Source of the DNA: Chthoniobacterales bacterium
GTDB lineage: Bacteria > Verrucomicrobiota > Verrucomicrobiia > Chthoniobacterales > UBA10450
Assembly (NCBI GenBank): GCA_045809795.1
Contig: JBJMXD010000005.1
Location: 225,177 to 289,176 of the forward strand
Length of the DNA: 64,000 bases
Direction of reading: 5' to 3'
Position 1 is the stretch's first letter, and every line of letters begins with the position of its first letter. The translations under genes and the position numbers were made by a program. The notes below the pieces were generated by a model, which saw only the letters and a program-made list of their open reading frames with translations, was not told where the DNA came from and made no database searches. Below are positions 2,516-41,804 of the stretch, in pieces.

Positions 2516-5500
2516 ATGAAAAGGCTTTTGATATTTTCGGGCGCGACGCTGGGTTGCCTGGCCAGCATCGCGTCGCTGAACGGGCAGGGCGGCACCGGCG
2601 CCGTTATGAAGGAGGCGCGAGTCACGCAGATCGTAAAAGACGTGAAGATCCAATCGCCGGAGGCCGCGCCGCGACCGGCTACGACGAGCGACACGGTGCG
2701 CGGGAATACGGCCGTCCGCACCGGCGTTGACTCGCGCGCGGAACTGACTTTTGGCGATCTCACGATCGCGCGATTGGGCGCGAACACGATTTTCAGTTTC
2801 AACGAAGGCTCGCGCACGGTGGATCTCGGCAACGGCGCGATCCTCCTCCGGGTGCCGAAAGGCTCTGGTGGTGCGAAAATCCAAACTGCCGCCGTCACCG
2901 CGGCGATCACCGGCACCACCGTCATCGCGGAATACCATCCGAAATCGTACGCCAAGTATTTGGTGCTCGAAGGCACGATGCGCCTCTACATGAAGGGAAT
3001 TCTCGGTGAATCGACGTTGTTGCATGCAGGCCAGATGATGATCCTCAACCCCAATGCGACCCGGCTCTCCGAACCTGTCGACTTCGATTTGGAGCGACTC
3101 TTGAAAACGTCGCTCTTCATTCAGGGATTTCCGCCGTTGCCGAGCGTGCCGTTGCTGGCCGCGGTGCAGCAAACTCAGTTGGAACAGAAAGCGGCCGGCG
3201 AATTAATCGATACGAACCTCGTGATCTTTGGGCGCGGCACACTGGTTACCATGACCGATCCGCAGTCGTCCGATGTTATCGATCGCAAGACGGCAGCAGT
3301 GACGTTGCCGACGCCGACCGCAACACCGACGGCACCTCCACCCACGCCCACCGCGACTGCTACGGCCACGCCGACAGCAACCCCCACCGCAACTCCGACT
3401 GCTACCCCCACTGCGACGCCCAAACCGAGTAAATTCGGGACTCCGCCACCGATCATAACTTCCGTTCCGTACCCGATCGACAACAGCACCACGATTCAGA
3501 CCGATCCGATGATCACTCGCGCCGGCGTGGACGATTTCGGGAAAATTTATCGCGACTCTGGCCAGGACGGCCCGTTCTCGACATGGGCGTTCACGGCCAC
3601 ATCGCCGTTCGACACGACGGTTGGGATCGACGCGCTCTACGGACCGAACGTGCCAGTGGCCGCTTTCAAATTCGTCGCGCTCCAGCTGGTGGGCGATCCT
3701 ATTATTTCCACCGCTAACGGCGGGGCGACAAATCTGGCGTTGATCTCTGTCGGTCCCATCACCACGGCGACAGCGGGTAATGCCACGTTCACATTTGCCG
3801 GAATGCAAAGCGTGCTCCTGGCCACGCAAAACGGTTCAATCGATATCACCAGCCCCGATATCAGTTTCCAGGGGATTCCGCAGCTCTTTTTCTACGCTCG
3901 CGGGACGGGCTCGAACCTGACGCTTGGCGGCATGGGAATTTTCGGAACGAACGCGCTGCGTCTCATGGCGGAAAACAATATCCAAATTAGTGCGCCAGAA
4001 AGTCTGACGAACGGGGTGAACGGCGGCGTGCTTGTCGGTACGGCAGGCGGAGGGATCACTGTAAATTCTCCGATCGATACTCCGACGGCTTTTGTTGCAT
4101 CCGGGACTTCTGGGAATGGTGGAATGGTGACGCTCTCCGCGTTGGGCGGAACGTTGACGGTGAACTCACGAATCCAGGTTTCATATAACGATCCCGACCC
4201 GAGCGTACCCGGGACGTTGATAAGACGAAGCGCCGAGGGTGGACCGATCGTTCTAAGAAGCGGGCTGACGACAGGAACGGGGATCAGCCTGACCTCCGGG
4301 GCGAGTTTGCTCTCGTTATTGAACCCAGCGGCTCCCGGTCCGCTCCCCGGCAATATCAATCTGTCCACGGCTGGAAGCGACATTGTCATCAACAACGCCA
4401 CCCTCCAAGTCGATCGCGGCGCGATCGGAATTCTGCAAACGGCATCGCCTTCGGCAGGAACGGCGCAGATCACGATCAACGGCGGTACGATCAACAGCGA
4501 AATATTGGGGGTCATTTCCCGTGGCGACCTGACGTTCGGGACCACCTCCCCGGTGAATCTTTCTGCCGTCACGCTGGGTTTGGTCGCGACGAACGACGTA
4601 ACCTGGAATGGAGGGACGCTTAGCGCGGCGGCGGTCAATTCCCAGGGGGATGTCATATTACAGGCCGGGCGTGACCTGCTAATCACCGGGCCGACGACAA
4701 TTGACCGCTCGACCGGCGGTGGCACCATCATCAAGACCCTTAACCTTACTCTCAGCGCCGGCCGGAATTTGCAGACGAACGGAGCGCTCAATCTCCACAC
4801 CGAGGGCAGTGGCCTAACGAACGGTGCGAGCATTAGTTTGAATTCCGGGGGCACGATGACGACGAGCGGCGCGACGAATCTGCAGGCGGAAATATTAAAA
4901 GCCGATGAGGGGGCCGGGAGTGACATCATCATCAGCGCCGGTGGCGCAATCACGATGGCAGACCTTTTCGCCGTTACCTCTCTGGGCGTTAATCGGACAC
5001 TCAACAGCGGCGGAAATGTCAGCCTGACTGGCGCTTCGTACCTTGCGACCGACCCGCAAGGCGGATTGAGACTGGTGGTCATCAACTTCTCCGGCGGAAC
5101 GATAACGTCCGGCGGCAATCTCTCCCTATCGCTGAACGGCGACCTGACGACTGGATCGGCGGGCACCTTCGGACTCGACATCGCCAATTCGACCGGAACG
5201 ATTCAGACCGGAGGAGACATTAATTCCACTGTCGCGGGCAACGTCTCAGCGAACCTGGTCGATATTCGAACCGACAATCGCTTCGGCGCGAGGATCGGGA
5301 CCGGCGGCGTGCTCACGTTCGACGTGAATGGAAGCCTGACTACGACCAGCGACGCCAATCTGGAAATCCTCAACAGCGAGATGGGGACACCGGGCGGCAA
5401 AATCGTGACGCCCGCATTCATACAGTCGACCCTCGGGAATACTAGCATCGGTGGCGATTTCAACGTGTTCGTCGACAACACCGATGGCTCGATCGGCCCC

Positions 5501-6824: not shown

Positions 6825-7733
6825 TTATTTTCGGCGCAGGTCGTCGAGATACCCCGCGCCCAGTGCAATGCCGGCGAGAATCAATGCTCCTGCCGTCGCG
6901 AACGGCACTGGATCGAATGGCGCCGGTGGCAATGAAATGATTCCGTGTTCGTCCGTTCGTGCCGGCCGCCGAACATAACGGCCGTGGCGCGGCGCGCGAA
7001 ATCTCTCGGCGAAACGTTCCAGCCGTGCGGCGAGCTCGGCATCGCAACGCGGAATCCCGTGGCCGCACCCGACGACATTTGGACGGAGTTTTGCGAGTTC
7101 CTTTACTGACAAGCGGGTTGCGTCCCAATCGGTGTTAAATGGCGCGCCGGCGCGCGCCAGCGTTTTGCGCCCGGTGATGAGTCCGGTCCAGGAATCCATG
7201 TTCATCGTTGCGAAGGCATCGCCGGGAAGCAGAACGCGATCGGATGGCCGAAAAAGGGAAATGTGCCCGGGAGAATGTCCCGGGGTCGCGAGCCATTCCC
7301 AACCGGTCGCTCCGGGAACTTCGTTTGGCTGCAATTCGCGAATCCGCCCCGTTAGATTGCGGGAGCCAGACGGCGTGAAGCGGGAAAGGAAGGCCATGGC
7401 GCCGCCGACGGTCGGATCGGGTGGGGGATAATCGGATTTACCGGTGAGATACGGCATCTCGAGACGGTGGGCGTAAATCGGCACGTTCCAGTAATCGGCC
7501 AACGGCAACGCCGATCCGGCATGATCGAAATGGCCGTGGGTCAGGATGATCGCTTCCGGCGGCGCGCCTGATCCGAACCGCGCTTCCGCTGCTTCGATTA
7601 TCTGATGCGTGCGGCCGGGAAGACCGGCATCGACGAGAACCCAGGCACCGCCGGGCCGTCCGACGAAGTAAACATTAACAAAACTGATCGGCAGCCAGCC
7701 GACGTCGGGTGCTATGCGGGTTATCGTGGTCAC
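6825..7733 (-). CDS. MBL-fold metallo-hydrolase
   Basis: 302 aa with an HxHxDH motif (ILTHGHFDHAGS). GTG start. Confidence 0.8.
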   Translation of the reverse strand: MTTITRIAPDVGWLPISFVNVYFVGRPGGAWVLVDAGLPGRTHQIIEAAEARFGSGAPPEAIILTHGHFDHAGSALPLADYWNVPIYAHRLEMPYLTGKSDYPPPDPTVGGAMAFLSRFTPSGSRNLTGRIRELQPNEVPGATGWEWLATPGHSPGHISLFRPSDRVLLPGDAFATMNMDSWTGLITGRKTLARAGAPFNTDWDATRLSVKELAKLRPNVVGCGHGIPRCDAELAARLERFAERFRAPRHGRYVRRPARTDEHGIISLPPAPFDPVPFATAGALILAGIALGAGYLDDLRRK

Positions 7734-33298: not shown

Positions 33299-34168
33299 AT
33301 GAAACCAGGAAAATTCACCCACACCATCGCCGTCCTGCTTTCTTCGATTACGGCGTTCTTTACCCACTCCGCGCCGGCCGCGGTCCCGGCGTCGAAGATC
33401 AAGCTCAGCAAGAAATCGAATTCGTCGAAGAAAGAAGGCCTCCTCAAGGTCGATCCTATTTCTTACACGCCCATGGCGAGCAACGATCCCCCATTGAACA
33501 ACCCCGGCGAAAAGTTTCCGTGGCGAAAAGAAATCGTCACCACCGTTTTTTGGATCGGCGAGAAACCGACCGCGAATAATCCCGTACCGAATCGCTCCAG
33601 TTCATGGGACGCAAACTGGACGAAGAACTACGGCGGGTTCGACGATCCGGAGAAATCGCATCGGCACGATTTCATTCCGGCGAAGTTCACCCCGCGACAA
33701 AATCCGTTCTACTGCGCGCTGCCTTACAACGACAAAGCGCGCGACGGCCACCGGCCCGAAGCGCCGCGCGTCGTGCCGTGGTTCAACGAAGCGTATCAAG
33801 GCCCCGGCGTTTCCACCTGCAAAGGCCGCTGGATCGCGATCCGCAAAGGAAACAAGGTCGCCTACGCGCAATGGGAAGATGCCGGTCCATTTCGGACCGA
33901 TCACTGGCAATACGTTTTCGGCAACGAACGTCCGAAACCGAACCTGAACAAAGGCGCCGGGCTCGACGTTTCACCAGCCGTCCGCGATTACCTGGGCATT
34001 GACGAGACCGACGTAACCGATTGGAAATTCGTCGACTTCAGCGAAGTACCTCACGGCCCCTGGTCCAAGCTCGGTGATAACAACACGTTTGTGATCAACG
34101 CCCGTAAAGGCATCGCGACGGTGGCCTCCGCGAATCCTACCCCCGGCGGCGTGACGGTTCGGCCCTAG
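33299..34168 (+). CDS. Hypothetical secreted protein (possibly the first, degenerate cassette)
   Basis: 289 aa. Signal peptide (IAVLLSSITAFFTHSAPA), then a conserved-looking Trp/Pro-rich core. The TAG stop lies in a degenerate R''-like CCCTAGC. Confidence 0.65.
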   Translation: MKPGKFTHTIAVLLSSITAFFTHSAPAAVPASKIKLSKKSNSSKKEGLLKVDPISYTPMASNDPPLNNPGEKFPWRKEIVTTVFWIGEKPTANNPVPNRSSSWDANWTKNYGGFDDPEKSHRHDFIPAKFTPRQNPFYCALPYNDKARDGHRPEAPRVVPWFNEAYQGPGVSTCKGRWIAIRKGNKVAYAQWEDAGPFRTDHWQYVFGNERPKPNLNKGAGLDVSPAVRDYLGIDETDVTDWKFVDFSEVPHGPWSKLGDNNTFVINARKGIATVASANPTPGGVTVRP

Positions 34169-34263
34169 CAACGACATGACGCCCCGTTCCCTCCCGACTT
34201 CGCCGTGATAGGCGAAAAAATGTTCGCCTTTAAATACGAACCTTCGTCTAATTCTCGTTAGAC
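34163..34263 (+). repeat. attC0, a decayed attC-like site (R''-like CCCTAGC ... R' GTTAGAC)
   Basis: The 3' end CGTCTAATTCTCGTTAGAC matches the attC7 3' end. The 5' half is only loosely similar, and the L-box pairing is lost. Confidence 0.5.
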
Positions 34264-34264
34264 G

Positions 34265-34561
34265 TTGAGAGCCGTGCACTATCACGATGGAACACCAGTG
34301 AAGCTCGGCGATCGGGTGCGTGCGGCCATTCCGGGCGGCACAGCCCCGGCACGCATCGTCATGCTCGGAGACACCTATGAGCATCTGGAGATCGATCCAC
34401 AGTTCCTGAGCTGGGTGAAGCGTGACAGAGTGCTGGAGCCAGCGCATGTTGTGCTCGAGTGGATCGAGGAAAACCCCTTTGCACATGACGATCCGAAATA
34501 TGCTCCAGTCGGAAACTTCATGTTTTCACCGCTCGATTCTGCAGTCACGCGTGACGTCTAA
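34265..34561 (+). CDS. Cassette 1 ORF, hypothetical
   Basis: 98 aa. TTG at 34265 (alternative GTG at 34274) lies 2 nt after the R' core. The stop TAA is the TAA of the attC1 R'' box. No family recognised. Confidence 0.5.
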   Translation: MRAVHYHDGTPVKLGDRVRAAIPGGTAPARIVMLGDTYEHLEIDPQFLSWVKRDRVLEPAHVVLEWIEENPFAHDDPKYAPVGNFMFSPLDSAVTRDV

Positions 34562-34678
34562 CCATGCGATGGAGCGAACGCCGGACCGCTTCGCGTCCAC
34601 ATTTGAGATGACTTCGACACTTCCACTCCGAGCGATGCGCGGTCTCGCCAGCCGTCGCTCATCTTGTTCTCGTTAGAT
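34556..34678 (+). repeat. attC1 (123 bp, loop class I)
   Basis: GTCTAAC...GGAGCGAACG...TTTGAGATGACTTCGACACTTCCACTCCGAGCGA...CGTCGCTCATCTTGTTCTCGTTAGAT. Confidence 0.85.
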
Positions 34679-34725
34679 GACGCGACGTGCCTTCTGGAAT
34701 CACCAAGAAATAGCTCGCGACCCAC

Positions 34726-35124
34726 ATGAGCTCCGATTTTGACCCGCGCCCGGACGAGCCTGCCGGCCACGTCGCGGACTCCTTTGTTCGGATGTTCTTC
34801 GGTGACGACGAGACTCGAGCGGAAGCCCTATCCTGGCTCAAAGCGGGTGGTGACAAGCACACTTTGGGAGAGCTAGCCTCCACTTCCGTATCAGTTCGCT
34901 TAGTCAACGCCGTTTATCGCGCCGGTGCGACGAAGGTTTGGGCCGTCGAGATCGACAGGTATCCCGATGGCAGGGAAAATACTGGCAAGATTGTTATCGA
35001 GTTGCCGGACGAGCCCCGGCTACGCAGTCAAGTCTTGGCGTGGGCGAGTCGGAAATCTAGAGCCAAAGGTTTTGGTGAAATCTACGACGAAAAGCAACAT
35101 TATGTTTTCCTCATGCTGGACTGA
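34726..35124 (+). CDS. Cassette 2 ORF, hypothetical cytoplasmic
   Basis: 132 aa with an ATG start. Stops 3 nt before attC2. Confidence 0.6.
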   Translation: MSSDFDPRPDEPAGHVADSFVRMFFGDDETRAEALSWLKAGGDKHTLGELASTSVSVRLVNAVYRAGATKVWAVEIDRYPDGRENTGKIVIELPDEPRLRSQVLAWASRKSRAKGFGEIYDEKQHYVFLMLD

Positions 35125-35127
35125 GTC

Positions 35128-35250
35128 ATCTAACCAAGCGATGGAGCGAACGGCGACCCGCTTTCGGTCCGCGCGCTCGCCAGCTAGAGTGTCTTTCGTG
35201 AAGGCACAGCGCGCTCTCGGTCGCCGTCGCTCATCTTGTTCTCGTTAGAT
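35128..35250 (+). repeat. attC2 (123 bp, unique loop)
   Basis: ATCTAAC ... GAGCGAACGGCGACC / GGTCGCCGTCGCTC ... GTTAGAT. Confidence 0.85.
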
Positions 35251-35521
35251 GGTGAATGCCGTTCCCAAAGCAGCGAACAAAAGACCAGCGTGGCAGCGCC
35301 GCGCTGTGAGTCAGCTTCAGTGGCGGCATCTTTATGCATGGCTTTTGAGTCTTGGTGTGGCACTTGTCATCGGATACGCCCTTCAGCAATGTGGATTGGC
35401 TTCGGTTCCTTGGGCGCTTTTATTCGTTCTTCCTTTTGTCCTTGCCTCCAGTTTCATGATCCCGCTCGCATATCGTCGCGGCTTGGAGGACGGGAGAGCG
35501 CACCCGTCTGACTCGGAGTGA
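35249..35521 (+). CDS. Cassette 3 ORF, small membrane protein (2 TM)
   Basis: 90 aa. The ATG overlaps the R' core (GTTAGATG). Hydrophobic helices LYAWLLSLGVALVIGYAL and WALLFVLPFVLASSFMI. Confidence 0.55.
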   Translation: MVNAVPKAANKRPAWQRRAVSQLQWRHLYAWLLSLGVALVIGYALQQCGLASVPWALLFVLPFVLASSFMIPLAYRRGLEDGRAHPSDSE

Positions 35522-35542
35522 GCTGATGCAGCAGCGCCGACC

Positions 35543-35665
35543 ATCTAACCATGCGATGGAGCGAACGGCGGACCGCCGCATGACAAGTATGAAGGAAAAA
35601 TTAAGAATTAAGAAGTATCCGGAGCGCGCTCCCGTCCGCCGTCGCTCATCTTGTTCTCGTTAGAT
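35543..35665 (+). repeat. attC3 (123 bp, loop class III)
   Basis: ATCTAAC ... GAGCGAACGGCGGAC ... ATGACAAGTATGAAGGAAAAATTAAGAATTAAGAAGTAT ... GTCCGCCGTCGCTC ... GTTAGAT. Confidence 0.85.
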
Positions 35666-36206
35666 GTTTCGACTGCACGTAACACGAACGATTTGGTTCG
35701 CAGCACTCGCGTGTGGGCTTGCCGCGATGGGTGAGGACACGCCAGTAACCAGCGCTCAGCAGCCCGCGCTCGAGAAGCTCGCAGGATCGGTCGGGGTTTG
35801 GGAGAGCACCACGCGGTATCGATTCGCGCCGGATATGCCTGTCTTTGAGAGCCACAGTGTCGAGACGACGCAGTGGTCCCCGAACCACAAGTTTCTGATT
35901 TCGGACCAGCGAGGAACAATGCCTGACGGGACGATAAACCGGGTCGTTGTCATTACTTGGGATCCGAAGGAGAAGTTGTACAAGCTGGTGGCGATCTATG
36001 CCGGAGGAGAAACCGAGCAACTGGCAATGACTGTCGAGGGCAGCGTGCGAACCATCGTCTCCTATCGTCACATCGGTGAGCGCATGATTCGCTGTGAGAA
36101 TAAGATGGAAGACACATCACCTACGGAATTTAAGGCCCGCTGCGAATGCACGGATCGGGAAACGAATTGGACCTTCTCGGAGGCAAGCTCAAAGAAAGTG
36201 CAGTGA
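35664..36206 (+). CDS. Cassette 4 ORF, secreted protein (DUF1579-like, tentative)
   Basis: 180 aa. The ATG overlaps the R' core. Signal peptide TIWFAALACGLAAMG. Confidence 0.65.
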   Translation: MFRLHVTRTIWFAALACGLAAMGEDTPVTSAQQPALEKLAGSVGVWESTTRYRFAPDMPVFESHSVETTQWSPNHKFLISDQRGTMPDGTINRVVVITWDPKEKLYKLVAIYAGGETEQLAMTVEGSVRTIVSYRHIGERMIRCENKMEDTSPTEFKARCECTDRETNWTFSEASSKKVQ

Positions 36207-36212
36207 GCCAAC

Positions 36213-36335
36213 ATCTAACCAAACGATGGAGCGAACGGCTGGCAGCCATGGAAAGTAAGATTTAAGAATTATGAAGCATGAAACCGCAGCGACGCGCCGT
36301 CCCGCCAGCCGTCGCTCATGTTGTTCTCGTTAGGC
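36213..36335 (+). repeat. attC4 (123 bp, loop class II)
   Basis: ATCTAAC ... GAGCGAACGGCTGGC ... GGAAAGTAAGATTTAAGAATTATGAAG ... GCCAGCCGTCGCTC ... GTTAGGC. Confidence 0.85.
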
Positions 36336-36353
36336 GACTAGCACGCGTCACCC

Positions 36354-36704
36354 ATGGATCCATTTCCAGAACCGCATGAACTGCTCTCATTCTTCTCGCA
36401 GGAGCCGGAGCTCGCGCACGCCGACACGCCGCCCTTTTACAATACCCTCAGATTCAGCGGGCGCGTCGGTGAGATCGCTTACGTCGTCAGGATTTCTCCG
36501 TCAGATCGCGAGCTACGGCTGCAGACGCAGTCCGACCAGATGAATGTCGATCTTGCCGTCACAGATGTCGCTGGCCTTACGGTTCACGAGGGGCCGACGG
36601 AGTCCCTTATGATGGCGACGTTTTCGCCTGACAGTCGACGCGGGCTTCTTAAGTTTCGTCTGCATCCACGCCTTGAGGTCGAATGGCCGTTCGAGAAGCA
36701 TTGA
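36354..36704 (+). CDS. Cassette 5 ORF, hypothetical
   Basis: 116 aa with an ATG start. No signal peptide. Confidence 0.55.
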   Translation: MDPFPEPHELLSFFSQEPELAHADTPPFYNTLRFSGRVGEIAYVVRISPSDRELRLQTQSDQMNVDLAVTDVAGLTVHEGPTESLMMATFSPDSRRGLLKFRLHPRLEVEWPFEKH

Positions 36705-36714
36705 CGACCGGTCG

Positions 36715-36837
36715 CCTAACCATGCGATGGAGCGAACGGCGGACCGCTGTGCGCTCCACTTTTGAGATGACTTCCACACTTCCACTCCGAGCGACGCGCG
36801 CTCTGGTCCGCCGTCGCTCATCTTGTTCTCGTTAGGC
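36715..36837 (+). repeat. attC5 (123 bp, loop class I)
   Basis: GCCTAAC ... GAGCGAACGGCGGACC ... TTTGAGATGACTTCCACACTTCCACTCCGAGCGA ... GGTCCGCCGTCGCTC ... GTTAGGC. Confidence 0.85.
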
Positions 36838-36839
36838 GT

Positions 36840-38072
36840 ATGAAACCACGCCCTCGATATTATTATGCCGCACTGCTCGGTGTCTTGTGTGCCGCTGGTT
36901 CGGGCCCCCTTCGGGCCGATCACGTGGATGACGTCGTAGCGGCGCAGATAAGACAACACCACATTCCGGGACTCGCGCTGGCAATCATCGAAGGAGGTGC
37001 GGTCGCCAGAGAACAAGGTTATGGATACGCGGACACAAGCCAGAGGACGGCAGTGACGCCTTCAACGCTTTTTCAGGCCGGCTCCGTCAGCAAAGCCGTC
37101 TCCGCATTGGGCGCGCTGCATCTCGTTGATCAGGGCAAAGCGTCACTAGACGAGGATATCAACTCGAAGCTGCGGACATGGCAAATACCGCAGAACGGGT
37201 TCACAAAAGAACATGCCGTGACGCTGCGGCTGATTCTCAGCCATAGTGCGGGTCTGACAGTGCATGGGTTTTCAGGCTATCCGGTGGACGCACCGCTCCC
37301 GTCCCTCGTGCAGATTCTCAACGGGCAAAGGCCGGCTAATTCAGCCGCGGTTCGCGTTGAAGAAGTTCCGGGGAGCCATTGGAATTACTCGGGAGGAGGC
37401 TATCTCGTCATTCAGCAAATGATAATGGATCTTACAGGAAAGCCGTTTGGGCAGTATATGCATGAGACGGTTCTGCAGCCTCTCGGGATGGTTTCCAGCT
37501 CGTATGCACAGCCGTTGCCAGCCGCAATGGCCGACCACGCGGCGACGGGTTACGCCGGTCTGTTTCGCCGTGCCATCAAAGGCCGCTGGCGTGTTCATCC
37601 GGAGTTGGCGGCCGCGGGTCTGTGGACGACGCCTGGCGATCTGGCTCGCTTCTTGATAGGTATCCAGCGCTCACGCGCTGGCACCTCCAATCCGATCATC
37701 TCGCGGTCCACCACGCGTCAAATGCTGACGAACCAAAAAAATGATGATGGTCTCGGCGTATTTATCGGAGGCGAGCCGCTCAAGTTCGGCCACGACGGAA
37801 GCAACGTGGGGTTCGATACCATGACCATCGCTTTTGCCGATAGAGGGCAAGGCGCAGTTATCATGATGAACACCAATGTGGACATCAAAGCTCTGAAAGA
37901 GATTCTGTTGGATGCTATCGGCGAGCAGTATCGCTGGCCGGGTTATCCAGTTGGATCGCGCCGAACGCCTAACCATGCGATGCAGCCAACCCCTGGCCGG
38001 CGTACGACCCAGTTTTCCATGACTTTAACCTCTCATCCCGCAGCCACGCGCGCCCACGCCAGCGGTGGCTGA
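36840..38072 (+). CDS. Cassette 6 ORF, secreted beta-lactamase-fold serine hydrolase (class C / family VIII esterase / PBP-like)
   Basis: 410 aa. Signal peptide YYYAALLGVLCAAGSGPLRA. Has SxxK (FQAGSVSKAV), YSGGGY and HDGSNVGF motifs. The last ~35 codons run through attC6. Confidence 0.85.
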   Translation: MKPRPRYYYAALLGVLCAAGSGPLRADHVDDVVAAQIRQHHIPGLALAIIEGGAVAREQGYGYADTSQRTAVTPSTLFQAGSVSKAVSALGALHLVDQGKASLDEDINSKLRTWQIPQNGFTKEHAVTLRLILSHSAGLTVHGFSGYPVDAPLPSLVQILNGQRPANSAAVRVEEVPGSHWNYSGGGYLVIQQMIMDLTGKPFGQYMHETVLQPLGMVSSSYAQPLPAAMADHAATGYAGLFRRAIKGRWRVHPELAAAGLWTTPGDLARFLIGIQRSRAGTSNPIISRSTTRQMLTNQKNDDGLGVFIGGEPLKFGHDGSNVGFDTMTIAFADRGQGAVIMMNTNVDIKALKEILLDAIGEQYRWPGYPVGSRRTPNHAMQPTPGRRTTQFSMTLTSHPAATRAHASGG

Positions 38073-38089
38073 TCTTGTTCTCGTTAGGT
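37967..38089 (+). repeat. attC6 (123 bp, divergent, class IV-related loop)
   Basis: GCCTAAC ... CAGCCAACCCCTGGC / GCCAGCGGTGGCTG ... GTTAGGT. Fully contained in the 3' end of the preceding ORF. Confidence 0.8.
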
Positions 38090-38107
38090 GACTAGAACGT
38101 CCTCCCT

Positions 38108-38461
38108 GTGGCCAATCCCGACAAACGCACTTCGTATCTCAAAAAGCTCGTCAGTGCCGCGCGCGCCGTCATCACCTATCAGGTCGGTTTGCCATTCGGC
38201 TGCGCGCGCATTGGCGGGCTCCTCTCTGCGCTGCGCCCGTTCGAGCCGCTCGATTATCCTGTATTCGACGAGTACCGTAATGCCATCGTCAATCTGCCGG
38301 TGGGGACGGAGCGGCTTCATTGGGCCCGTGAGAGTCTCCGCGAGAAGGACATTCGGCTCGAAGCCATCACTGGTGAGTTTCGCGATCGCATTTTCGAGGC
38401 CTGTTATGACATCATTGATCGCCATGCCGAGCCTGTTGACAAGCAACGCGACGTCACCTAA
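38108..38461 (+). CDS. Cassette 7 ORF, hypothetical
   Basis: 117 aa with a GTG start. The stop TAA is the TAA of the attC7 R'' box. Confidence 0.5.
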   Translation: MANPDKRTSYLKKLVSAARAVITYQVGLPFGCARIGGLLSALRPFEPLDYPVFDEYRNAIVNLPVGTERLHWARESLREKDIRLEAITGEFRDRIFEACYDIIDRHAEPVDKQRDVT

Positions 38462-38578
38462 CCAAGCGATGGAGCGAACGGCCGGCAGTCCTGGAAAGTA
38501 AGATTTAAGAATTATGAAGGATGAAACCAAAGCCACGCGCTCTCCGGCCAGCCGTCGCTCATCTAATTCTCGTTAGAT
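38456..38578 (+). repeat. attC7 (123 bp, loop class II)
   Basis: ACCTAAC ... GGAAAGTAAGATTTAAGAATTATGAAGG ... CCAGCCGTCGCTCATCTAATTCTCGTTAGAT. Confidence 0.85.
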
Positions 38579-38972
38579 GGCTCCGCGCTCCTTTTGGCGG
38601 TCTCGCTTGATCCTCCTTTGCGCATTTCTGCTGGTTGCCGGATGCGTATCACTGACAAGTGTCGTTCTCGCACCCAATCCCCACCCGCGTGAGGCATTAA
38701 CCCTCGATTTGCGCCTGGCGTACGTGCACATTCACCGTCAAACCATAATGGACACGCTTCTCGCGATCGACAGCGCCATCAAACGACAGTCCGGCCGGAG
38801 GCATGGCCTCGCCTTCTCCGTGGAATACGGAGGGGGCAAAAATGTTTCCATTGATGCTCACGACATGACTGTGAGGAGCTTGCTCCTCCAGATCTGTCGC
38901 CAGTCTGACCTCATTTGCGAGATGGACGATCCGAATTCGCCTTACGACGTTTCCATCACCTCCCGAAACTAG
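38577..38972 (+). CDS. Cassette 8 ORF, lipoprotein
   Basis: 131 aa. The ATG overlaps the R' core. Lipobox LLVAGC. Confidence 0.65.
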   Translation: MAPRSFWRSRLILLCAFLLVAGCVSLTSVVLAPNPHPREALTLDLRLAYVHIHRQTIMDTLLAIDSAIKRQSGRRHGLAFSVEYGGGKNVSIDAHDMTVRSLLLQICRQSDLICEMDDPNSPYDVSITSRN

Positions 38973-38981
38973 AGTGAAAAC

Positions 38982-39104
38982 ATCTAACCATGCGATGGAG
39001 CGAACGGCGGACCGTCCGTATGCAAGGCGGAATTAAAAATTAAGAATTATGAAACAAGCAACGCGCGCTCTCGTCCGCCGTTGCTCATCTTGTTCTCGTT
39101 AGGC
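38982..39104 (+). repeat. attC8 (123 bp, class III variant)
   Basis: ATCTAAC ... GAGCGAACGGCGGAC ... AATTAAAAATTAAGAATTATGAAAC ... GTCCGCCGTTGCTC ... GTTAGGC. Confidence 0.85.
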
Positions 39105-39112
39105 CTCTCCAA

Positions 39113-39802
39113 ATGCGCTGGTTACAAATCTTCGCCATTCCAGCTGTTGTGGTAACCGCTTTTGCGGCAGACCAAGCTATCACAGTCGGCGGCGACCGAG
39201 CGAAGGAACTGTCCCGGGAAGACATCAGCAATATCGTATTGCTTTGCAAACAGACGCGACCTTCGGAACGTCTGTGGGCGGTTGTTACCGATAAGAGCCC
39301 TGCCGCACCAAACCAGATGTTACGCGCCACAGTCTATTTCTATCCGACTTTGATTCAGTCTCGGCTCAGGACGGGTTCGGCAGCTTCGGTGACCGCGGGA
39401 GTATCTGCCGACAAATTCGTCAGCATACAATCTCGGCAAGGACGCTGGATTAGCAGCGGAGCGCAATTAGCCAAGTATGCACAAGTTGCCATCGATGATA
39501 GCCAGTTCCTGAATGCACCTGGAGACATTCGCGACCCCCAAGAAGGCCCATTTTTTGTCGCCAACGAGATTTTAGACGCGGACATTGTTTCGATCGTCGA
39601 TTCCTTGCGCGCTTTCTTACGGGCCGATCCCAGTTCCGCCGGACCGGCGCGCAGGACTCATCCAATCACCATCATGATGGGTTCCAAGAGTCATGCTGAG
39701 GTCTGGTCGAGTGGGGGCGATAAGCATTTTGACACCTACGTGCTCGACAAGCACGGCGAGAAGTGGAGCATTTCTAAGACTGGACAGTTCGACGCACAAT
39801 GA
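39113..39802 (+). CDS. Cassette 9 ORF, secreted protein
   Basis: 229 aa. Signal peptide MRWLQIFAIPAVVVTAFAA. Confidence 0.65.
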   Translation: MRWLQIFAIPAVVVTAFAADQAITVGGDRAKELSREDISNIVLLCKQTRPSERLWAVVTDKSPAAPNQMLRATVYFYPTLIQSRLRTGSAASVTAGVSADKFVSIQSRQGRWISSGAQLAKYAQVAIDDSQFLNAPGDIRDPQEGPFFVANEILDADIVSIVDSLRAFLRADPSSAGPARRTHPITIMMGSKSHAEVWSSGGDKHFDTYVLDKHGEKWSISKTGQFDAQ

Positions 39803-39818
39803 CAAGTCGCCCCACGAC

Positions 39819-39941
39819 GCCTAACCAAGCGATGGAGCGAACGGCGGACCGCCGGATGACAAGTATGAAGGAAGAATTAAGAATTAAGAAGTATTCGGAG
39901 CGCGCTCTCGTCCGCCGTCGCTCATCTTGTTCTCGTTAGGC
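39819..39941 (+). repeat. attC9 (123 bp, loop class III)
   Basis: GCCTAAC ... ATGACAAGTATGAAGGAAGAATTAAGAATTAAGAAGTAT ... GTTAGGC. Nearly identical to attC3. Confidence 0.85.
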
Positions 39942-39943
39942 CC

Positions 39944-40318
39944 ATGCAGCGCGTCTTGATGCCATTGGTCACCTTCATCGGTGCGATTATCGCATCTACG
40001 GTGATGGCGGCGTCGGATATCCCATTAATCTGCGAGGAGAACCTTGCCACCGAACACAAGCGGTGCGGCATCTCTGACGCGCAGGCTCGTGAGGCCATGC
40101 GCTTCGTCAGGAGGATTCCCGGTGTGAGTCATCAGATCATCACGATCGATGCGCTCGATCTACCGCAGGTTGTCGTCACCACAGGCGAGCCATTCGAGCG
40201 GGGCCACACCGTCTTTTTGCGACGGATGGGTCGGCGTTGGACAGTGGAGAAGACGGTCCCGTGGACCAAGAAAGATTGGATCATCTTAGGCGCGAACAGG
40301 CCTAACCAAACGCTGTAG
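39944..40318 (+). CDS. Cassette 10 ORF, secreted protein
   Basis: 124 aa. Signal peptide LMPLVTFIGAIIASTVMAA. The reading frame passes through the attC10 R'' box. Confidence 0.6.
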   Translation: MQRVLMPLVTFIGAIIASTVMAASDIPLICEENLATEHKRCGISDAQAREAMRFVRRIPGVSHQIITIDALDLPQVVVTTGEPFERGHTVFLRRMGRRWTVEKTVPWTKKDWIILGANRPNQTL

Positions 40319-40423
40319 CGAACGCCTACCCGTCGTTCGCCCAACATTTCCTATGACTAAACCATTTCACCTCCGATCGACGCTCGCCTCTGGTAGGCGT
40401 CACTGATCTCTTTCTGGTTAGAC
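40300..40423 (+). repeat. attC10 (124 bp, loop class IV)
   Basis: GCCTAAC ... GTAGCGAACGCCTACC ... CATGACTAAACCATTTCAC ... GGTAGGCGTCACTG ... GTTAGAC. Confidence 0.8.
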
Positions 40424-40425
40424 CT

Positions 40426-41028
40426 ATGAGCACGCCATTCCAAGTCGTCGCGCTGGTCGGACTAGCGGCCTGGCTGTGCCCGAAGGCCTACGCGCCGATC
40501 TACGGTGGCTATCCAGGTTTGCATTCGCTCATCAAACAGTCAGAAATTGTCGCCGCCGTCACGATACTCGAGCGGTTGTCGGACGACGATTTCGGTGATT
40601 CCGCGCGATACAAGATACAGTTCGACAAGCTGCTGAAGGGATCCGCGTCAGAGAAGCAAGTCGTCGCTTACCTCCGCTACCTCGAAATCATTCCAGAGGA
40701 GGAGATGCGACGCACCCCTCGGCCGGGGCCGCAGCCATCAACCCATTACTTTGCTCTAACGGACCGGCTTGAGCCGTTCCGTAGGCAAGCGCGGTTCGTT
40801 GTCTTCTTAACGAAAGCGAGGAAAGAGGTCGAGACGGCATACGAAAACGTTAACTGCATGGGATCGACATTTCCTTTGTCCCCGCTAAGAGATCTTGACG
40901 CGCTCAAGATGGATTCATTGCCGGATACCCTGATTCTCCTTTTCCGAGAGTATGTTGACTTCAGGCGCACAGAGCTGAAGGAAGTTGAGGCGCAGCTAAG
41001 TGAATTTGTTCATCATCGCGACGAATAG
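40426..41028 (+). CDS. Cassette 11 ORF, secreted protein
   Basis: 200 aa. Signal-like N-terminus FQVVALVGLAAWLCPKAYA. The TAG stop abuts attC11. Confidence 0.65.
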   Translation: MSTPFQVVALVGLAAWLCPKAYAPIYGGYPGLHSLIKQSEIVAAVTILERLSDDDFGDSARYKIQFDKLLKGSASEKQVVAYLRYLEIIPEEEMRRTPRPGPQPSTHYFALTDRLEPFRRQARFVVFLTKARKEVETAYENVNCMGSTFPLSPLRDLDALKMDSLPDTLILLFREYVDFRRTELKEVEAQLSEFVHHRDE

Positions 41029-41151
41029 GTCTAACCAAGCGATGGAGCGAACGGCTGGCAGCAGTGGAAAGTAAGATTTAAGAAGTATGAAGGAAAAAAC
41101 CGCAGCCACGCGCTGTTCCCCCAGCCGTCGCTCATCTTGTTCTCGTTAGAC
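41029..41151 (+). repeat. attC11 (123 bp, loop class II)
   Basis: GTCTAAC ... GAGCGAACGGCTGG ... GGAAAGTAAGATTTAAGAAGTATGAAGG ... CCAGCCGTCGCTC ... GTTAGAC. Confidence 0.85.
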
Positions 41152-41154
41152 CCA

Positions 41155-41682
41155 GTGAAAACGTTCGCCCTCTTGCTCTGCGTTGTTGGAATCGCGGCTG
41201 GCGAAACCCGGTCGATTAGCGATCTGACCCCGAGCGGCATAGTGGGTAATTGGGAGTCCCTGGCAGCGCGGGCGGACGGGGTACCGGTCCCCATCGTGCT
41301 CCAAATGTCTTTTACCGCTCCGGACGCCGCACACCTCGTGGTCAGTAACTCCACGGATCCGGAGTCTACTCCTCGGTTTCTTGGGAAGCTGACGAGTTCC
41401 AGCCTAATCAAAGGGAAGATCCATCTTAGATTTTCTGCAGTGCCTCCATATCCGATTCCTGCCGAGGGAGTGGATTATGGATATGATCGAGTAGAGATCG
41501 ACGGGCGCGCGACCGATGCCGGTGAGCTCTCCTCGGTGGAAGGAACGCTTGTGATGCACGGTACAAAGGAGAAGGAAGTGACGTATCGCGTTTTTTTCCT
41601 TAAGTCGCTTTGGGTGCATGAGCTTGCTCAATATTCGAGAGCCGCTCAGGAAATCATAAAGAATGTGCAAGCTCACCATTAG
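41155..41682 (+). CDS. Cassette 12 ORF, secreted protein
   Basis: GTG at 41155 gives (M)KTFALLLCVVGIAAG. The track start at 41137 is a TTG inside attC11 and was rejected. Confidence 0.6.
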   Translation: MKTFALLLCVVGIAAGETRSISDLTPSGIVGNWESLAARADGVPVPIVLQMSFTAPDAAHLVVSNSTDPESTPRFLGKLTSSSLIKGKIHLRFSAVPPYPIPAEGVDYGYDRVEIDGRATDAGELSSVEGTLVMHGTKEKEVTYRVFFLKSLWVHELAQYSRAAQEIIKNVQAHH

Positions 41683-41804
41683 TCTAACCACGCGATGCAG
41701 CGAACGCCTACCCGTCGTTCGCCTGACATTTCCCATGACTAAATCATTCCACTTCCGACCAACGCTCGCCTCGGTAGGCGTCGCTGATCTCTTTCTCGTT
41801 AGAT
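41682..41804 (+). repeat. attC12 (123 bp, loop class IV)
   Basis: GTCTAAC ... CAGCGAACGCCTACC ... CATGACTAAATCATTCCAC ... GGTAGGCGTCGCTG ... GTTAGAT. Confidence 0.85.

Follow-up and report, generated by a model that had tools for sequence, protein, structure and literature searches.

A gene cassette for a predicted exported serine hydrolase with an open reading frame extending into attC in a chromosomal array of a Chthoniobacterales bacterium

In resistance cassettes of integrons, the stop codon of the coding sequence overlaps attC in the majority of cases, and extending translation as far as or into attC gives about 2-fold higher expression of the cassette downstream (PMC11511950). The TAG within the core sequence GTTRRRY is a known stop codon, that of attI1 ORF-11, where translational coupling has been described (PMC8876359). 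Explicit reports of open reading frames (ORFs) that extend far into attC were not found in the literature searched, which offered general remarks on overlapping stop codons only. Cassettes also occur in clusters of attC sites without an integron-integrase (CALINs), split arrays in which they are cut off from the Pc promoter and are possibly still excised in trans (Cury et al. 2016, PMC4889954). The present analysis concerns a cassette of such an array, located in a 64,000-nt stretch of the genome of a Chthoniobacterales bacterium (GCA_045809795.1, contig JBJMXD010000005.1, here designated C5, nt 225177-289176). This stretch is referred to as the window; its positions are counted from the first nucleotide, and the features described in it lie on the forward (+) strand. 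The cassette carries a 410-codon ORF for a serine hydrolase with a predicted beta-lactamase fold, and the ORF continues into the attC that follows it, attC6.

Like the resistance cassettes with a stop/attC overlap (PMC11511950), this cassette has a promoterless ORF lying against an attC with two built-in stops, the TAA of the R'' box and the TAG of the R' box. It differs from them in that the ORF covers 106 of the 123 nt of attC6 and gains a tail of 34 residues, and from the cassettes of mobile class 1-5 integrons in that it resides in a sedentary chromosomal CALIN. The phenomenon is known in kind and a little unusual in its extent and in the reliance of a whole cassette lineage on it. As a whole the finding is largely ordinary, integron cassettes, CALINs, and PF00144 hydrolases being known kinds, because the tests for a known beta-lactamase failed and read-through often arises as a side effect in attCs of this family.

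The element is probably best explained as a CALIN cassette for an exported S12 hydrolase, not a dedicated beta-lactamase, with an attC-encoded tail that is largely incidental. The enzyme would act in the periplasm or outside the cell, most likely as a D-peptidase-, amidase-, or esterase-type enzyme. Its ORF, devoid of a stop codon of its own, enters attC6 about 7 residues past the end of the fold (...EQYRWPGY) in the frame CCT-AAC, bypassing the R'' TAA, and reaches its TGA in the L' arm, 15 nt ahead of the fail-safe R' TAG. The tail would be unstructured and largely incidental, a by-product that arises where ORF and attC are packed directly together. This explanation draws on direct observations of the ORF, its family membership, the structure and covariation of attC, the frame statistics, the recurrence among homologues, and a disorder prediction; export and catalytic activity of the protein, dispensability of the tail, and mobilisability in trans are presumed from them.

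The hydrolase cassette and its array

The hydrolase ORF (nt 36840-38072; ORF call and Pfam PF00144 match) ends at a TGA (nt 38070-38072) that forms positions 104-106 of attC6, and both its length of 410 aa and this end agree with what had been predicted. That it is a gene is far beyond chance (PF00144, E = 1.4e-53). Ends of cassettes are set by the integron crossover rule G|TTRRRY. Delimited by these crossover points, the cassette comprises 1252 bp (nt 36832-38083) and starts with TTAGGC of the R' box of the upstream site attC5 (nt 36832-36837), which itself occupies nt 36714-36837 and was recognized by its R''/R' pair, by alignment, and by a covariance-model score of 125.8 bits. The ATG is situated 2 nt past the attC5 R' core GTTAGGC, and the noncoding share of the cassette amounts to 19 nt, 8 before the ATG and 11 after the stop, making it a clean example of a tight fusion of ORF and attC. 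Among the 40 delimitable cassettes of the genome it is the largest, the remaining ones being 367-837 bp, which confirms the size ranking that had been proposed for it.

The site attC6 (123 nt; nt 37967-38089) possesses an R'' box GCCTAAC (nt 37967-37973), an L''/L' stem, a variable loop, and an R' box GTTAGGT (nt 38083-38089). Its covariance-model score of 114.4 bits was mid-range among the attCs of its family; the model was trained on the window's own sites, making this score circular, and it detects related attC types only. In the RNAalifold consensus fold of the 12 attCs of the window, 27 base pairs were predicted, 10 of which showed double-sided compensatory changes; these changes indicate that the 12 repeats are structurally constrained attCs. 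In attC6 itself, the pairs 17:106, 21:102, and 25:99 were flipped from G-C to C-G relative to the sibling attCs. The bottom-strand fold of attC6 showed the expected arrangement of R boxes, spacers, and L stem, and its energy was no better than that of shuffled sequences (z = -0.36). Since this fold energy was not significant, it is covariation that supports the structure of attC6. An inverse core R'' (RYYYAAC) and a core R' (GTTRRRY), a compensated, imperfect L''/L' palindrome with an asymmetric unpaired spacer and bulged bases, and a cognate integrase in the genome, the features that mark integron cassettes, were all found, and with an intact attC on either side the cassette status originally assigned to this gene stands.

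The array consists of 12 intact attCs of 123-124 nt (nt 34556-41804) with decayed copies at either end, and is flanked by genes for an exosortase, a TPR protein, and a hybrid histidine kinase; no integrase was present among the ORFs flanking it. A CALIN is defined by at least 2 attC sites with no intI within about 4 kb, and the array, with its 12 attCs, is a CALIN. The genome assembly (3.7 Mb in 8 contigs) contains a full-length intI at C5:72689-73627 without internal stops (TIGR02249, 457.9 bits versus a cut-off of 265), and downstream of it, on the same strand, 30 homogeneous attCs measuring 123-125 nt that are of the same type as those of the window, the whole extending over C5:72689-88489. 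In this complete integron, intI is co-oriented with the cassettes (the "reverse" layout) instead of showing the usual divergent one. Such a combination of homogeneous attCs without a nearby intI and a complete integron with attCs of the same type elsewhere in the genome resembles the CALINs described previously (PMC4889954), from which no difference of note was observed: the array is a typical secondary or split array in an IntI-encoding genome. The window cassette lies 186 kb from intI on the same contig. With intact attCs on both sides of the cassette and a full-length intI at that distance, the term "mobilisable" given to it holds in principle only, and mobilisation in trans by the IntI of this genome appears feasible.

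Passage of the reading frame into attC6 and its recurrence

As had been predicted, the ORF does not read the R'' TAA (nt 37970-37972) in frame: it passes into attC6 as ACG CCT AAC and occupies positions 1-106 of the site. The attC-encoded C-terminal tail comprises residues 377-410 (PNHAMQPTPGRRTTQFSMTLTSHPAATRAHASGG; nt 37968-38069), that is, 34 codons, plus one base of the codon for T376, close to the 35 or so residues first estimated. The terminal TGA owes its existence to a C-to-G change in alignment column 106; the pairing partner, column 17, carries the compensating change from G to C. In the AlphaFold model described below, residues 380-410 had a predicted local distance difference test (pLDDT) score below 50 and were thus predicted to be disordered. 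We conclude that the tail is probably a tolerated, unstructured by-product.

All 42 attCs of the genome were read in three frames. Frame A always ended at the R'' TAA. Frame B, the one used by the hydrolase, had no stop before the R' TAG (position 119) in 18 sites and none before position 104 in 2, and was hence open to at least position 104 in 20 of the 42, the R' TAG being the last possible stop in 123-nt sites. Frame C usually ended at about position 51-54 or 105-120 and contained no stop at all in 4 sites. Because frame B is open this far in 20 of the 42 attCs, read-through is expected whenever an ORF without its own stop enters in this frame, and it is not statistically unusual. The read-through is no peculiarity of this cassette but a recurrent, frame-dependent by-product of the attC family, whose conserved boxes provide a fail-safe stop codon for particular frames. 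The longest ORF ended at position +106 or +121 in 6 of the 40 cassettes, some of these short ORFs possibly not being real genes. Another ORF of the window (nt 39944-40318) ended 19 nt into its attC, at a TAG arising from a T at alignment column 17 of attC10.

The same frame (…T/L-P-N…) was found in homologous cassettes from four independent assemblies (NCBI, Logan, ENA, and JGI), namely L006/L007, L089/L090, L091, and L092, and in about 30 database proteins. L006 and L007, from NCBI assembly GCA_038230255.1 and a Logan assembly, share 64% identity with the window protein and have a TAA at exactly the equivalent attC position. In L089/L090 and L091, from ENA and JGI contigs with 96-nt attCs, the ORF runs on to the R' TAG, behind which the next cassette ORF begins at once with its ATG, and in L092, from an NCBI metagenome-assembled genome (MAG), the stop is located in mid-attC. 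Where the TAG of the R' core abuts the next ATG (GTTAGATG; L089:6174-6179 and L091:3645-3650), the layout suits termination-reinitiation coupling. The tails were conserved only at the conserved attC boxes: those of the window protein and L006 share TPNxAMQP…GRR… and …ASG(G/S), with unrelated middle portions encoded by the loop.

Tails of the "PN" type, encoded by R'' and 2 to about 37 residues long, were present in 33 of the 116 nearest database homologues. In a tree from which the tail columns had been excluded, tail-bearing homologues were clustered, requiring 14 changes; label shuffles required about 29, and none of 500 gave a value as low. Most homologues without a PN tail ended at their own stop, 4-8 residues past WPG/D. 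The covariance model, which finds related attC types only, detected no attC beside L094-L096, homologues from the same genus; of these, only L094 was examined closely, and it is not a cassette gene and ends at a stop of its own.

Protein family and predicted fold

The PF00144 match covered residues 29-349 with 182.7 bits, versus a gathering threshold of 27. Three motifs were recognized: the SxxK nucleophile motif S82-V-S-K85 (nt 37083-37094), Y183-S-G-G-G-Y188 (nt 37386-37403), which aligned with Y-S-N of Flp and Y-L-N of Pab87, and H318-D-G320 (nt 37791-37799), an HxG motif aligning with H-S-G of Flp. In 109 homologues sharing 45-67% identity, S82, K85, Y183, G185, G187, and G320 were invariant and H318 was kept in at least 90%; because of this conservation, the active site looks intact. 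A Sec signal peptide (residues 1-26; nt 36840-36917) was predicted by reading of the sequence, with the basic start MKPRPR, a hydrophobic core, and the site LRA|DH, and equivalent AXA-like sites precede the conserved DHVDD in the aligned homologues, in keeping with the signal peptide originally proposed. Two other modes of surface location were considered and rejected: a lipoprotein, GVLC not being a canonical lipobox, and a PEP-CTERM sorting tail, neither a PEP motif nor a transmembrane segment being present in the tail despite the neighbouring exosortase. The protein is thus a putative exported serine hydrolase of the S12 type (PF00144, COG1680 "CubicO-group peptidase" type).

The structure prediction that had been recommended gave a confident beta-lactamase fold. 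The AlphaFold (AF2) model based on the alignment of 109 sequences had a mean pLDDT of 89 and a predicted template modelling score of 0.85, with pLDDT above 90 for roughly residues 30-370; it replaced an earlier run on 23 sequences (pLDDT 53.7). The nearest solved proteins, all at about 20-22% identity and with near-equal scores by sequence as well as by fold, were Flp, Pab87, IS11, the R61 DD-peptidase, EstU1, ClbP, AmpC/MOX/PDC, and LACTB. The best Foldseek matches of the model (E about 1e-21 to 1e-23) were Flp, Pab87, R61, ClbP, IS11, and AmpC, lactamases and non-lactamases matching about equally, and IS11 (7spn) gave the highest query template modelling score (0.71). Together with the PF00144 match and the motifs SVSK, YSGGGY, and HDG, these fold matches substantiate the assignment to serine hydrolases with a beta-lactamase fold and an SxxK nucleophile.

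With Flp (4gdn), the Pab87 "CubicO" peptidase (2qmi), and Streptomyces R61 (1cef/3pte), the window protein shares the fold, SxxK, the Tyr, and HxG in place of KTG, with profile E-values of 1e-21 to 1e-33 and Foldseek E-values of about 1e-22. It differs from them in being only about 20-22% identical and in having Gly for the Asn of YxN, and it lacks the C-terminal lipocalin-like domain of Pab87. For R61, phmmer, profile, and Foldseek E-values were 1.5e-14, 2e-21, and 6e-22, respectively, at about 20% identity and without the YxN Asn. The family VIII carboxylesterases EstB, EstU1, and IS11 likewise share the beta-lactamase fold, SxxK, and the Tyr; EstU1 (4ivi, E = 2.9e-14) and EstB (1ci8, E = 6.7e-11) were both matched at 22% identity or less. 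Family VIII esterases are mostly cytoplasmic, whereas the window protein has a predicted signal peptide. The NCBIfam D-aminopeptidase model gave 55.9 bits versus a cut-off of 443, and that of AmpH 44.7 versus 266. From motifs and neighbours, we read the protein as probably lying nearer to the D-peptidase/esterase side of the superfamily than to AmpC; the earlier view that its substrate cannot be deduced from the sequence is shared here.

In a collection of 5.8 billion proteins no near-identical copy was found, the best non-self match being 67% identical. A homologue was present in 3 of 18 genomes of the same genus; 12 genomes representing other families within the order had none. A protein encoded by one same-genus genome (G003) looks identical, in the stretches compared by eye, to the database entry P0077, labelled "Verrucomicrobiota bacterium" by NCBI, and the host probably belongs to this phylum. 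Around 63 homologues at loci without an attC-model match, no Pfam family occurred in more than 2 of 107 neighbouring ORFs, giving no shared neighbourhood. Two homologues of 580 aa (P0084 and P0102) have a further domain, PF11954, of about 200 aa at the C-terminus, indicating that a two-domain form of the family exists. These data document a widespread subfamily of putative exported S12/PF00144 hydrolases, mainly from soil metagenomes and MAGs, part of which moves as integron cassettes in arrays of the Verrucomicrobiota type.

Alternative readings and further observations

The cassette had been regarded as relevant to reservoirs of resistance genes, and the corresponding explanation, a genuine cassette-borne serine beta-lactamase of class C type that forms part of the environmental resistance reservoir, seems improbable. 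The window protein resembles class C enzymes (AmpC and the integron-borne IDC type) in fold, SxxK nucleophile, Tyr as general base, and predicted periplasmic export, partial matches to many class C models and to the structures of AmpC, MOX-1, and PDC were obtained, and class C enzymes borne on integron cassettes exist (IDC-1, PMC13674405). However, the class C model (NCBIfam NF033085) scored 65.5 bits versus a cut-off of 415, the class C allele-family models all scored at most 64 bits versus cut-offs of 680-900, and no curated NCBIfam model was passed by the protein. Class C enzymes have the hallmark motifs Y150-x-N152 and K315-T-G317, which are replaced here by Y183-S-G185, with an invariant Gly185, and by H318-D-G320, the HxG variant found also in R61 and Flp. 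In fold, AmpC was matched no more closely than non-lactamases were, identity being about 20% throughout, and homologues borne on plasmids share at most 45% identity, reside on environmental replicons, and are annotated merely as "serine hydrolase". The recommended search against beta-lactamase families thus yielded relatives by fold, all at about 20% identity, without any lactamase cut-off being passed and equally without a firm placement among esterases or D-aminopeptidases. With the nearest solved relatives being mostly non-lactamases, a reservoir role appears unsupported on these sequence comparisons, and from the viewpoint of resistance surveillance the outcome is mainly a negative one, "beta-lactamase" being here the name of a fold and not of a resistance determinant. 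That the gene is a decaying, nonfunctional relic in a silent CALIN is still less probable. An adjacent integrase and a Pc promoter are lacking, the ends of the array are decayed, and two related loci show that such decay occurs, L020 by a frameshift and an early TAG and L008 by a decayed attC; against this stand 410 uninterrupted codons with all invariant family residues, a confident fold model, and intact attCs on both sides.

A sequencing or assembly artefact, such as a 1-nt indel before R'' that hides a true end at the R'' TAA, had been named as a possible cause of the read-through. The spacing before R'' in L020, one base different and with the R'' TAA in frame, would fit such an error; the same frame recurs in the independent assemblies and database proteins listed above, and this cause is extremely improbable. 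A functional role of the read-through, in which translation melts the attC hairpin of the mRNA and brings terminating ribosomes to the start of the next cassette, thereby coupling expression in a promoter-poor array, is unlikely but has more to be said for it. It would agree with the TAG-ATG junction (GTTAG-ATG) in L089 and L091, with the 2-fold downstream gain in resistance cassettes (PMC11511950), with the precedent of the ORF-11 stop (PMC8876359), and with the recurrence of the trait in the hydrolase family. In the window, the next likely start after the hydrolase is the GTG at nt 38108, belonging to a DUF2489 protein and situated 36 nt beyond the stop, and coupling would not be tight here; moreover, tails end at many depths, including 2 residues into attC, and half of the attCs of the genome are open in this frame by default. 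Rather doubtful, too, is the idea that the hydrolase lineage is permanently without its own stop, its tail, 2 to about 37 residues long and changing as attC evolves, being set by whichever attC it carries, and translation through attC being exploited for hairpin unfolding and coupling. If true, such "read-through cassettes" would enhance the expression of cassettes downstream of them in chromosomal arrays poor in promoters, and a function of the tail or of attC translation would be a small addition to the view that translation shapes expression of cassette arrays.

Several points weigh against the preferred explanation, that of a non-lactamase hydrolase with an incidental tail. The same stop position in the window and L006 cassettes, whose proteins are 64% identical, might be a sign that tail length is under selection. 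Assignment of the PN-tail label was based on the C-termini of the proteins, with confirmation at the DNA level for five contigs only, and the window protein is placed on a long, unsupported branch, the tree giving no support for its membership in a tail-bearing clade. A promoter/terminator scan of nt 33900-38400 gave nothing above the shuffle background, and a Pc promoter is absent from the CALIN. Turnover of beta-lactams by the hydrolase is still conceivable; some family VIII esterases, such as EstU1 (PDB 4ivi), hydrolyse lactams promiscuously.

Two further homologous loci showed departures from the intact arrangement. In L020:2965-4198, from a Chthoniobacterales MAG (65% identity), the ORF ends at nt 3906, similarity runs on to nt 4067, and the gene looks frameshifted; a TAG directly follows WPGYS, and the one-base difference in spacing before R'' places the R'' TAA in frame. 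Either decay of this copy or a misassembly accounts for these features. On the 434-kb JGI contig carrying L008, only the 3' half of an attC was observed (nt 7093-7198), with R' mutated to GCTGGCC, and these remains suggest a fossilised cassette that has become fixed in the chromosome.

The cassettes neighbouring the hydrolase cassette in the window encode a DUF1579 protein (nt 35664-36206) and the above-mentioned DUF2489 protein (nt 38108-38461); no Pfam match was obtained for the other cassette ORFs of the window that were tested. Isolated attC-like R''/R' pairs of the same type were observed elsewhere in the genome, at C6:787523-788265 (+), C6:188467-189005 (-), C6:1432688-1432804 (-), and C8:15367-19340 (-), and may represent small CALINs or solo cassettes. 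In L091, a D-Ala-D-Ala ligase gene with its own attC (L091:1257-2440, attC at 2343-2440) is located directly upstream of the hydrolase cassette; Ddl cassettes have been linked to D-cycloserine resistance in a reverse integron of Treponema (bioRxiv 10.1101/2020.05.09.085589).

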